Shown: one piece after another, positions 52,537-55,063 of the stretch
How positions within the stretch are numbered: position 1 is the stretch's first letter
Layout of the letters: every line of letters starts with the position of its first letter
From: an uncultured Mycoplasmatota bacterium
GTDB taxonomy: Bacteria > Bacillota_I > Bacilli_A > RF39 > UBA660
Length of the DNA: 64,000 nt
Assembly: GCA_900549325.1 (NCBI GenBank)
Contig: UROI01000001.1
Coordinates: forward strand, 34,213 to 98,212
Direction of reading: 5' to 3'
Translations under genes and position numbers: made by a program
The notes under the pieces: model-generated
What the model saw: only the letters and a program-made list of their open reading frames with translations
Database searches by the model: none
Told to the model about the DNA's origin: nothing

Positions 52537-52565
52537 TTGACAGATAGGCAATTTTATAGTATTAT
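52537..52565 (+). promoter_or_regulatory. Consensus sigma-A promoter for the tRNA-Gly gene
   Basis: TTGACA, 17 bp, TATTAT; ends 18 nt before the tRNA 5' end. Confidence 0.6.
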
Positions 52566-52582
52566 TATTATTGCCTACTGAT

Positions 52583-52656
52583 GCAGATGTAGTTTAATGG
52601 TAGAACCTCAGCCTTCCAAGCTGACTGCGTGAGTTCGATTCTCATCATCTGCTCCA
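52583..52656 (+). tRNA. tRNA-Gly (anticodon UCC)
   Basis: 74-nt cloverleaf: acceptor stem GCAGATG/CATCTGC, D-arm, anticodon stem TCAGC/GCTGA with loop CTTCCAA (anticodon TCC), T-arm GTGAG TTCGATT CTCAT, encoded CCA. Confidence 0.85.
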
Positions 52657-52700
52657 GATTGATAGGAAACTCGGAAATTAACTTCTGAGAGTAATAAATG

Positions 52701-52725
52701 CTAACTAGAAATAGTTAGTTTTTTT
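52701..52725 (+). terminator. Rho-independent terminator after the tRNA-Gly gene
   Basis: CTAACT agaaat AGTTAG followed by TTTTTTT. Confidence 0.65.
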
Positions 52726-52747
52726 GTTATGTAAAGGAGTTGATTAT

Positions 52748-53020
52748 ATGTTAAATATAGAAACAAAAGAATTAAAAATAAGTGATAAATTAAAAAGAAA
52801 AATTGATATAATTGGTAGATTTACAAATACTACTCCAATTATAAATAATGGTTCAATTAAAAATATAACGGGGACAAATGTTGCTTATGTTATGCCACAT
52901 ATTATAGTTATTAAGAATAATAAATACCTAATGTTTGATGAATGTGATAATGTTTATGTAAATACATTTAAAAACAAAATAGTATTTAAAGATTTAGAAG
53001 ATTATATAAATAGTCATTAA
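52748..53020 (+). CDS. Hypothetical protein (90 aa)
   Basis: ATG 52748 preceded by AAAGGAG; no recognisable domain. Confidence 0.35.
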   Translation: MLNIETKELKISDKLKRKIDIIGRFTNTTPIINNGSIKNITGTNVAYVMPHIIVIKNNKYLMFDECDNVYVNTFKNKIVFKDLEDYINSH

Positions 53021-53033
53021 AAATCTTTTTAAA

Positions 53034-53230
53034 TGTTAGACTTCGTAAAATTAACTTTAAAATGTCAAACAAGTGAGAGGTGTCTTTTAAAATATCTATA
53101 TTTTAGACTACACTTTTCAAGCTTAAAGTGCCAAACATATGAGAAGCATATTTAAATTTTTTAAAATTTTAGACTTAACTTTTCTCATTTAAGATGCCAA
53201 ACATATGAAAGGAGATATTTAAAAAATATG
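53034..53230. repeat. Three tandem direct repeats of about 66 bp immediately upstream of, and overlapping, the recombinase ribosome-binding site and start codon
   Basis: Units share T(G/T)TTAGACT, then about 9 nt, then T-rich, then TTTAAAGTGCCAAACATATGAGA(A/G)G, then ATTTAAA; unit starts near 53034, 53101 and 53167. Confidence 0.7.
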
Positions 53231-55063
53231 AATAAAGAAAATAAAATAGCAGGTATTTACATTAGGGTCAGTACAGAGGATCAAGCTCGTGAAGGTTTTA
53301 GTTTAGGAGAACAAGAAGAAAGATTAAGAGAGTTTTGTAAGTTTAAACGATATGAAATATTTAAAGTTTATAAAGATGCAGGAATCAGTGCTAAAAGTGA
53401 TAAACGGCCAGCATATCAAGAAATGCTTGAGGATATAAAAAGCAAGAATATTAATGTAATTGTAGCATTTAAACTTGATAGACTTACTAGAAGTGTTTAT
53501 GATATTGAAAAATTAATGAAAATAGTTAATGATTTAGAGTGTGATATCGATTGTCTAGCTGATGAATCTAACACTACTACTTCAAATGGCAGAATGGTTA
53601 TGAGAATTATGACTAGTGTAAGTCAAAATGAAATAGAAAAATGTTCTGAAAGAACTAAAGTCGGATTAGCAGGTGCAATTAAACAAGGACACTTGCCAAG
53701 TAGAACTACACTGGGTTATAAAAGAGAAAATAAAAAGTTAGTTCCCAATCCACTTACAAAAGATATTGTAGTGAGAGTTTTTGATTTATATTTAGAAGGT
53801 AAAAGTCACCAAAAAATAGCAAACATCTACAATAAAGAAAATGTTTTAGGTAAAACTTGGAGAGATTCTACTATTCAAAAGATATTATCTAATGAAATAT
53901 ATAAAGGTGATTATATTCATGGTAAAAGAACTAAACATCCAACATATTATGAAAATGTAGTTGAACCTTTAGTTAATAAAGATAAATGGGAATCTTGTCA
54001 ATATCAAAAATTAAGAAATGCAAGACACTATGAAAGAACTTCAACATATCTTTTTACTAACAAATTAAAATGTTCTAAATGTGGTAATTATTTTGGTGGT
54101 AAAGCTAGTGTTAAAAAGAAACTTAATAAAAAGTATTACTACTATAAATGTAATCATTGTAAAATTAATTTAAAAGAAGATTCTATTGAAGATTTGATTC
54201 TTTTAGAACTATTAGCACTTGTTTATATAGATGACCTATTTAACGACTATTATACGCCTTTTATAAAGTCAAAACTTGATTATAATAAAATAGATTATAA
54301 AAAGGAATTAAAAGAACTAGATAAAGAAAAAGATAGGATTAAAACAGCATACATTAAAGGTATAGTTAAACTGGATGAATTTGATAATGAATTAAAACAA
54401 ATAGAATATAAAAGACAAGTACTAGAAAAACAAGAGCAAGATAGCAAACAATATGAAAATTTAAACTTTACTATGGATGATTTATTGCTTATTAAAGATA
54501 AAAAAGAAATAGAAGATTATCTTCACCCTGAAAATATAATTGATTTGTTTGTTCGTTGGAATTATTTAGATAAAACAAATAAACAAAAACTAATTTCTAA
54601 ATATATTGATGACATAGAAATAGAAAAGTTAGGTACAAAAATAGAAATAAAAAAATTAAATTTAAGAAACTCATTTTATTATGACTTAATTGATTATCAT
54701 AATAATTATGACACGCCGCTTGATTTATTTATGTTTATGGATGAGGATAAATTTCCCATACCTGTAGCACATAATGGTTTTAGAACTAGAATTGAAATAG
54801 AAAATTATGTTAATAAATTAAAAGAAATGTATGATGTTAATTATTATGAAGTTATACCGAATAAAGATTTCACTAATTTATCATTTACACCTAAAAATGA
54901 TATAGAAAAAATAATAAGAATAATACCTATAAAAGATAATGATAAATTTAAAAGTAACAAATTAGAACTCGGAATAATCACTATTAATTTATCAAAAATA
55001 AAAAGTCCAGATGGAACACTGCTATATAAAAATATTTTTAAAACAAGTAAACTACCAACTTAA
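53228..55063 (+). CDS. Large serine recombinase (resolvase domain, recombinase domain, zinc ribbon)
   Basis: N-terminal resolvase catalytic domain ([12 protein letters not shown] with the Ser nucleophile, DRLTRS), recombinase domain, Cys cluster CSKCGN...CNHC, long coiled-coil C-terminal region. Confidence 0.85.

Follow-up and report, generated by a model that had tools for sequence, protein, structure and literature searches.

A probable serine recombinase-driven integrative element at the 3′ end of a tRNA-Gly(UCC) gene in an uncultured RF39 bacterium

Introduction

When a tRNA gene is followed by the gene of a large serine recombinase (LSR), does the recombinase mark an element that entered the chromosome at the tRNA gene, and where does such an element end? 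We examined this question in a 64,000-nucleotide stretch of DNA from an uncultured Mycoplasmatota bacterium of the RF39 lineage (assembly GCA_900549325.1, contig UROI01000001.1), hereafter called the window, in which a tRNA-Gly(UCC) gene precedes the gene of a 611-amino acid (aa) LSR. An initial annotation, made from the sequence alone, had proposed an integration hotspot or island border at this place and had left open both the boundaries of the element and whether the tRNA gene was its attachment (att) site. Comparison with related loci leads us to conclude, with a probability of roughly 0.85, that positions 52657-57064 are an LSR-driven integrative element inserted at the 3′ end of tRNA-Gly(UCC).

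Results

The element and its attachment sites

The features of the tRNA gene, the element and its junctions are as follows.

52537-52565, plus strand: σ70-type promoter of the tRNA gene, TTGACA-17 nt-TATTAT (11 of 12 matches, the top score in the region)
52583-52656, plus strand: tRNA-Gly(UCC) gene (ARAGORN; Rfam tRNA, 69.8 bits)
52651-52656, plus strand: attL core GCTCCA, comprising the two last acceptor-stem bases, the discriminator base and CCA (junction comparison)
52657-57064, plus strand: integrated element, 4,408 bp
52670-52725, plus strand: trailer borne by the element (P′ arm), with hairpin 1 (52670-52689), a terminator hairpin (52700-52719) and a T-run (52720-52725), from folding
56644-57064, no strand assigned: non-coding right end, of which segment 56644-56966 is common to other element types (cross-locus comparison)
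about 57033-57058, no strand assigned: P arm (GAGGTTGTCCGACTTCAACCTTTATG), which mimics the T-arm and acceptor strand (junction comparison)
57059-57064, plus strand: attR core GCTTCA

We fixed the boundaries by comparing more than 100 related loci (given L numbers below). Window positions 52500-57064 recurred with 99.4% identity behind the tRNA in L090, and positions 52651-57064/57067 with 99.7% identity in L082 and L088, where they lie behind other elements. Relative to L006, DNA identity jumped from ~75% in tex, upstream of the tRNA, to ~100% from the tRNA onward; the Tex proteins of the two loci were 80% identical and the LSRs 100% identical. An unoccupied site was present in L007, where the sequence reads tRNA...TGCTCCA|AATGAAAATATACCC (the same stretch is also given as AATGAAAATATACCCTTAAAATATAAGGG), and in L087 a flank of the L007 type directly follows the right end of an element of the window type, with one base differing in the stretch compared. 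The integrated element that the initial annotation had suspected is thus borne out by the near-identical blocks, by the identity jump and by the unoccupied site, which was found by the comparison with relatives that the annotation had proposed. For the exact window strain no unoccupied site was found, all contigs bearing p241, a gene of the right flank, either carrying the element or breaking inside its right end. Base composition showed no step at the element, GC content being 20-30% throughout. At the level of sequence comparison, recent spread of the element between species was shown.

At the left junction (52656|52657) the sequence reads tRNA...CATCTGCTCCA|GATTGATAGGAAACTCGG, and at the right junction ...GAGGTTGTCCGACTTCAACCTTTATGGCTCCA|flank, the window genome having GGCTTCA, which ends at 57064. 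All that the two junctions share is a repeat of 6 bp, which reads GCTCCA at the left end and GCTTCA at the right; six further copies of this right end have GCTCCA, and the base found in the window also occurs in an independent, 100% identical sample (L093). The initial annotation had reported no direct repeat of the tRNA 3′ end, which was correct for a long repeat, because a serine recombinase leaves just a few shared bases, here 6 bp. The sole recurrence of the tRNA 3′ end in the window consists of 5 of these 6 bases at 57059-57064, so that the partial copy it had advised searching for exists as a short core, and the long repeat expected as a signature, which is typical of tyrosine integrases, does not. 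GCTCCA at the junctions and the unoccupied L007 site support the tRNA 3′ end as the att site. The left crossover presumably took place within or beside GCTCCA at 52651-52656.

In the P arms of all element types, a short palindrome that imitates the tRNA T-arm stands 4-8 nt ahead of GCTCCA, and the T-arm, acceptor 3′ strand and CCA of the tRNA itself are best read as the chromosomal (B) arm of the attachment site. The 470-nt right end yielded no credible non-coding RNA, the top match (E = 0.24) being to an implausible miRNA family.

The tRNA-Gly(UCC) gene, the only tRNA gene found by ARAGORN in the window, was confirmed at the position first given for it, as was its promoter: the −35 hexamer is invariant and the −10 position kept in nine related loci, two of them in different neighbourhoods. 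Promoter-like matches as a class were not above chance (33 found, 26 expected in 24% GC DNA). The promoter is chromosomal and lies outside the element. The "clean terminator" assigned to the tRNA is real as a hairpin and T-run, the 74-nt trailer after the tRNA folding with −19.4 kcal/mol (z = −4.25); it does not belong to the tRNA gene, because it lies inside the element. Junction comparison gave every element type its own hairpin and T-run directly after CCA, and by the same comparison of sequences the terminator 3′ of the tRNA is assigned to the element, the native one being visible at the unoccupied L007 site. A consensus terminator scan did not call the hairpin at 52700-52725, because its stem has too few G-C pairs.

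The recombinase and its partner gene

Three features make up the left part of the element.

52748-53020, plus strand: orf90, a 90-aa conserved partner of the recombinase (homologue upstream of all six LSR types)
53036-53232, plus strand: three tandem repeats of ~66 bp, a triplicated 5′ leader and ribosome-binding site (RBS) region of the LSR gene (unit alignment)
53228-55063, plus strand: LSR, 611 aa (Resolvase, Recombinase and Zn_ribbon_recom domains)

By its domain architecture the 611-aa protein is classed as an LSR, as first proposed. Pfam gave Resolvase at residues 10-155 (1.7e-34), Recombinase PF07508 (4.5e-18) and the zinc ribbon PF13408, the last barely over threshold (1.2e-5; 26.0 bits against a cutoff of 25.3), and a CxxC...CxxC pattern could be read directly at residues 284-312. 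The catalytic motifs YIRVSTEDQ (Ser15) and DRLTRS are present and are kept in all six LSR types found at this tRNA (see below). A charged, heptad-like stretch at residues ~350-420 was seen by eye only. The closest solved relative is the catalytic domain of the TP901-1 integrase (8e-21), the protein matches PHROG 95 "integrase" at 1e-107, and its best NCBIfam match is CcrB, with 129.5 bits against a cutoff of 900; TnpX matched only weakly and at the N-terminus (5e-6). From these domains and motifs we infer that the LSR catalyses integration.

The divergence of orf90 tracks that of the LSR (r = 0.88, over 15 non-independent pairs). Its product had no family match in the scans run, among them Pfam, PHROGs and NCBIfam, and no fold match; given where orf90 lies and that it diverges in step with the LSR, we regard it as a candidate directionality or accessory factor. 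The ~66-bp units between the two genes read TTAGACT...TGCCAAACATATGA[GA]A[GA]G, and only the third has a good RBS and an ATG. TRF did not report these repeats. In the other LSR types the gap between orf90 and the LSR gene is shorter (75-214 nt); the leader repeats may be regulatory.

Just past the LSR stop codon lies an AT-rich segment of ~90 bp (55072-55165), antisense into the 3′ end of the LSR gene. The same segment occurs twice in L004 (16400-16830), each time preceded by iteron-like repeats (21-22 bp, three or four of them); one of the two copies runs into a 28-aa open reading frame (ORF).

Occupancy of the site in relatives

The exact LSR sequence is listed in 2,081 public-assembly blocks and was seen on at least 1,000 contigs; in 10 of 10 sampled places it lay in the interval that runs from the tRNA/Tex side to UvdE. 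The tRNA-Gly site is occupied by at least six LSR types, with mutual identities of 26-52% and identities to the window LSR of 33-47% (BLASTP), and behind the tRNA the relatives have tandem runs of one to four elements or remnants; the hotspot proposed by the initial annotation is therefore well founded. All internal junctions of the arrays run from a hairpin-bearing arm through GCTCCA to a trailer hairpin. The array cargo in relatives includes Mob_Pre relaxases, TnpV, DNA methyltransferases, DEAD/ResIII helicases and Abi_alpha, and further a thymidylate kinase with UDG and MazG, ABC transporters and an insertion sequence.

The order Tex then tRNA-Gly(UCC) is kept in 13 relatives, four of whose contigs stop 48-70 bp past the tRNA, and contigs coming from the opposite side break 30-190 nt inside the right end of the element. 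These breaks on both sides are signs of population heterogeneity at the site, and the locus explains why the assemblies of these uncultured genomes break at the tRNA.

An LSR 99% identical to that of the window follows tRNA-Gly(UCC) in L105, and a 64%-identical relative does so in L104, both with no Tex nearby. Another left end, TTGACGAATCTGTTCGAAC..., which belongs to an LSR type of ~640 aa, follows tRNA-Gly(UCC) in L103 (11500-11830, minus strand), likewise in a neighbourhood unrelated to that of the window, and tRNA-Thr(GGU) in L106 (11500-11760, minus strand), the two tRNAs both ending ...GTTCGATTC...GCTCCA. Insertions at tRNA-Gly away from Tex and at tRNA-Thr indicate that the target is the tRNA itself and not its neighbourhood, and the sequences suggest that the LSR family can use more than one tRNA gene.

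A scan with the Tex protein (50333-52498), one genome per species, returned uncultured gut "Bacilli" and "Tenericutes" of the Clostridium sp. CAG:302 / CAG:321 type, which we take to correspond to the RF39 lineage. One further contig (GCA_902477185.1, CABSGF010000001.1; L092) was 100% identical to the window over 14.6 kb.

Proposed mechanism

On a circular form of the element, attP would consist of the P arm ending ...CAACCTTTATG, the core GCTCCA and the P′ arm beginning GATTGATAGG. The LSR would synapse this site (P arm ~57033-57058, core, P′ from 52657) with the tRNA 3′ end, cut at a central dinucleotide within or beside GCTCCA, rotate the half-sites and religate them. Insertion leaves the tRNA intact, with a new trailer hairpin and terminator supplied by the element. 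Since the tRNA-side arm is rebuilt each time, and since element left ends look like the native 3′ flank, further elements of the same family could enter. Excision would need the LSR, perhaps together with the orf90 protein; the attP joint of the excised circle would then read ...CAACCTTTATGGCT[C/T]CAGATTGATAGGAAAC and the repaired attB ...CATCTGCTCCAATTGTGGTTTTTAAG.

Several observations weigh against an active, LSR-driven element. The initial annotation had suggested looking for excised circles, and a scan of metagenome contigs found none: the only contig with P, core and P′ joined was the junction of two tandem degenerate elements. Classical LSRs do not use attL as a target, and array growth needs attL or a junction between elements to serve as one, so that it is not explained by the textbook attP × attB rule. 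A domain scan and a comparison with sibling DNA revealed neither a relaxase nor a recognisable oriT in the window copy, which has no DNA similarity to the mob regions of its relaxase-bearing siblings. Of the features of an integrative and mobilisable element (IME), the copy has its own integration module and site-specific insertion and lacks a relaxase of its own; its transfer would therefore have to depend on other elements.

The attR core GCTTCA also counts against activity: should the changed base be part of the crossover dinucleotide, this copy could be locked in place. The element would then have been integrated by the LSR and be fixed now, the C-to-T change at 57062 mismatching the crossover sites and blocking excision. 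Besides the contrast with the six GCTCCA copies and the sharing of the change with L093, this reading gains from dyad symmetry, whose scores (10-13 of 22) point weakly to CT or TC within GCTCCA as the centre. With a crossover at CA or 3′ of it, however, the change would be harmless; moreover, terminal junctions with GCTTCA also occur in L005 and L081, and the intact LSR ORF does not differ from the widespread form. We consider a fixed copy unlikely, and retain an LSR-driven integrative element as the preferred explanation.

Cargo cassettes

Between the LSR gene and the non-coding right end, the element carries two genes and three sites assigned by site mapping.

55223-55235, minus strand: terminal L half-site (AAATTACAATTTA), which closes the cassette array
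55298-55864, minus strand: p188, a membrane-anchored or secreted protein, in a discrete cassette of ~0.8 kb (~55199-56026)
55987-56027, minus strand: complete 41-bp site between the xre and p188 cassettes (CAAATTACAATTT-N15-AAATAGTAATTTG)
56034-56597, minus strand: xre, XRE-family helix-turn-helix (HTH) regulator with a C-terminal transmembrane segment, 180 aa from the ATG at 56576 (HTH_3, 1.5e-14)
56645-56657, minus strand: first R half-site, the start of the array, which coincides with the breakpoint at 56644 of the shared segment 56644-56966

The exact p188 protein occurred in 24,830 blocks, twelve times the count of the LSR, and a short variant of the element, otherwise identical, is without 55236-56008. 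The p188 unit is flanked by ACAAATTACAATTTA. In L099, L101, L102, L104 and L105, p188 stands in arrays of small co-oriented genes whose order varies, its neighbours including beta-lactamase-like with VanZ, DUF2651, CAT, HTH regulators and others. Arrays were located at L099 5839-8795, L101 5459-5877, L102 6630-8795 and L104 5839-7284. They open with a lone right half-site and close with a lone left half-site, and between cassettes stands an imperfect palindrome of the general form AAATTACAATTT-N15-17-AAATAGTAATTT, whose left part travels with the upstream gene and whose right part travels with the downstream gene, the spacer types assorting independently. Two of the three types of 41-bp site fold as hairpins in single-stranded DNA (z about −4). 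The evidence for cassettes is this mapping of sites to gene boundaries and not the number of 13-mers in the window, which was not above chance (4 against 2.5 expected). From the mapping, xre and p188 look like cassettes bounded by 41-bp palindromic sites.

We rejected integron attC as an identity for the 41-bp sites: their arms AAATTACAATTT and AAATAGTAATTT differ from the RYYYAAC/GTTRRRY cores. No tyrosine recombinase (IntI) was present in or near the cassette arrays, and no recombinase was consistently next to the arrays examined; the likeness of the cargo cassettes to an integron is one of organisation only. Two IS110-family transposase genes (L105 4520-5722 and 6877-8079) flank p188 in L105, in or beside 41-bp sites. 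Their placement brings to mind IS1111/IS110 elements, whose targets are integron attC sites or REP hairpins.

Could the recombinase instead be an invertase, with the xre-p188 segment turning back and forth as its phase-variation switch? Window positions 55157-56964 are indeed present in L004 at 97.6% identity and inverted relative to the neighbouring recombinase gene. That recombinase, however, is a different protein, 41% identical to the window LSR, and in every locus examined that has both, the xre/p188 cargo has one orientation relative to the window LSR; no inverted repeats flank 55157-56964, and the inversion breakpoints coincide with cassette sites and with segment 56644-56966. We therefore rejected the switch, which is very improbable, and read the L004 arrangement, on this comparison, as a probable exchange of modules.

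Nor does the element appear to be the remnant of a temperate phage whose serine integrase has survived. The best PHROG match of the LSR is to a phage integrase family and its distant relatives are phage integrases, at no more than 35% identity within the first 290 residues. The other element proteins, however, had no match to phage structural or replication families in PHROGs, and none appeared among the Pfam labels of the array genes; the elements measure 3-8 kb, and siblings carry Mob_Pre and TnpV, hallmarks of mobilisable elements. We rejected a prophage origin, which on these scans and comparisons is hardly credible.

Flanking genes

The right flank of the element begins with the following features.

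57065-57110, plus strand: hairpin and T-run beyond the element (−9.3 kcal/mol, z = −3.7)
57346-58071, minus strand: p241, outside the element
58076-58984, minus strand: Fic, outside the element (PADLOC PDC-S04, a candidate defence family, 7.6e-13)

FtsX to Tex, upstream of the tRNA, are syntenic in relatives. UvdE, ArsP, p307 and p247 follow Tex in L005, L007 and L011 (Tex ~80% identical), with identities of 42-71%, and in L004 these four and CapA are 63-86% identical. The interval between tRNA and UvdE is variable, measuring 6.4 kb in the window, ~1.4 kb in L007 and 3.4-3.7 kb in L005 and L011. We regard UvdE to CapA, by their synteny, as core genes and not as island cargo. The gene list of the initial annotation implied an island as far as CapA; the element ends at 57064. 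Among the downstream genes that it had counted as a non-core mix, the XRE gene does lie inside the element, Fic lies outside, and UvdE to CapA are core. It had named conservation of the whole run from recombinase to CapA as evidence that would speak against an island: the UvdE-CapA part proved conserved by synteny, and the recombinase block proved mobile.

Folding placed hairpin terminators within 57065-57199, and the one at 57065-57110 could be the terminator native to the tRNA or else what is left of a decayed element at its left end. On the minus strand (window 57200-58984), Fic and p241 stand together with a 47-aa ORF in a unit specific to the strain, the exact p241 protein being found on only 10 contigs. 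In L004 and L089, Fic occurs without p241 and is preceded by a left-end copy like window 52651-52735, probably the stump of an older element.

Beside the unoccupied site in L007 (12409-12720, minus strand) lies a 103-aa ORF whose sequence (HKFRHSH...ETYSHL) resembles the catalytic C-terminus of a tyrosine recombinase; a tyrosine-integrase island may at one time have occupied this same tRNA. A classical island of that kind running from the tRNA to CapA, with the LSR as a passenger, would agree with the tRNA 3′ end as the site and with this relic, yet it has next to no probability, since there is no tyrosine integrase between tRNA and CapA in the window and no long tRNA repeat, and the mobile block ends at 57064, before the syntenic core.

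Directly upstream of tex, the window encodes a 998-aa protein (47324-50320, plus strand) for which Pfam and PADLOC gave no match. Its identity is 96% in L001 and only 58-59% in L003/L004, where the flanking genes are 95% identical, and it has no match in L002; the gene is either fast-evolving or replaced. The window also contains a T-box leader (16315-16509, 104.9 bits) and a small SRP RNA (3702-3799, 58 bits), both ordinary and unrelated to the element.

Discussion

Serine-family integrases were not known to target tRNA genes in the Islander study (Hudson et al. 2015, PMC4383910). In Firmicutes, serine-recombinase IMEs insert inside dispensable protein genes and disrupt them, and only tyrosine integrases are listed with tRNA 3′ ends as their targets (Guedon et al. 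2017, PMC5704250). Our literature search, which was incomplete and leaves novelty unproven, found no report of serine integrases at tRNA genes, of this family or of serine-recombinase elements in RF39. The window element and the serine IMEs (PMC5704250) both rely on one LSR, have very short flanking repeats, insert site-specifically and often lie in tandem with decayed elements; the IMEs disrupt protein genes, whereas the window element preserves the tRNA. With the tRNA islands of tyrosine integrases it shares the logic of a tRNA 3′ end, gene restoration and tandem arrays, but their enzymes belong to an unrelated family and their core spans tens of bases, as opposed to 6 bp.

The nearest precedent is the ssrA islands of Dehalococcoides, whose CcrB-like serine recombinase DsiB accompanies insertion at the 3′ end of the tmRNA gene, with restoration of the gene and tandem stacking (McMurdie et al. 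2011, PMC3146451). Both systems combine a serine recombinase, the 3′ end of a structured RNA gene, live and decayed islands in tandem and an integration module at the left edge. They differ in that the ssrA islands target tmRNA, where the repeat measures 20 bp and strands cross over in the T-loop, whereas the window element targets a tRNA and shares 6 bp at the CCA end; the ssrA module has six genes, including a second, small recombinase, whereas the window has one LSR and the 90-aa protein; and hosts and proteins are unrelated at the family level.

Staphylococcal cassette chromosome (SCC) elements are likewise LSR-driven: they enter a conserved gene at its 3′ end and leave it active, regenerate their target, form composite tandem arrays and carry variable cargo. 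The logic of SCCmec/SCC (CcrAB, CcrC) is therefore similar, but the window LSR is not a Ccr protein by its NCBIfam score, and SCC uses rlmH and a CcrA/CcrB pair where the window element uses a tRNA and a single recombinase. The small clostridial elements Tn4451/Tn4453 are moved by one LSR (TnpX), as here. Siblings at the hotspot carry TnpV and a Mob_Pre relaxase like TnpZ, as does Tn4451, and one cassette array carries CAT. Tn4451 has low target specificity and GA at its ends; the window copy differs in its strict tRNA CCA-end target and is without TnpV, TnpY, TnpZ and TnpW. The phage serine integrases of TP901-1, A118, phiC31 and Bxb1 have the same three-domain architecture, but identity is at most 35% and there is no phage context here.

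We see the window element as a variant on known integrative elements, one that is LSR-driven, targets the CCA end of a tRNA, encodes a conserved partner protein, accretes in tandem and carries cassette-like cargo. More tentatively, the combined features could define an undescribed family of gut elements in which an LSR and its 90-aa partner insert at tRNA T-arm-to-CCA ends (Gly-UCC and also Thr-GGU), rebuild the target and accumulate cargo in tandem, and which in addition hold integron-like single-gene cassettes exchanged by a putative recombinase; this wider proposal is possible, though we hold it with less than even confidence.

The finding concerns a diversified serine recombinase family that targets the CCA end of tRNA genes and preserves the gene, unlike the pairing of tRNA genes with tyrosine integrases in reference works. 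Its elements are abundant in human gut metagenomes and move between species. Six enzymes that have a common 6-bp core and differing arms could serve the study of how serine integrases read their sites, and the development of orthogonal integration tools. The cassette cargo, which in relatives includes beta-lactamase-like and CAT genes, may represent a separate route of gene exchange in gut Firmicutes. If the target is indeed rebuilt at each insertion, defence, resistance and other cargo would accumulate in tandem at this tRNA, as it does in SCC elements.

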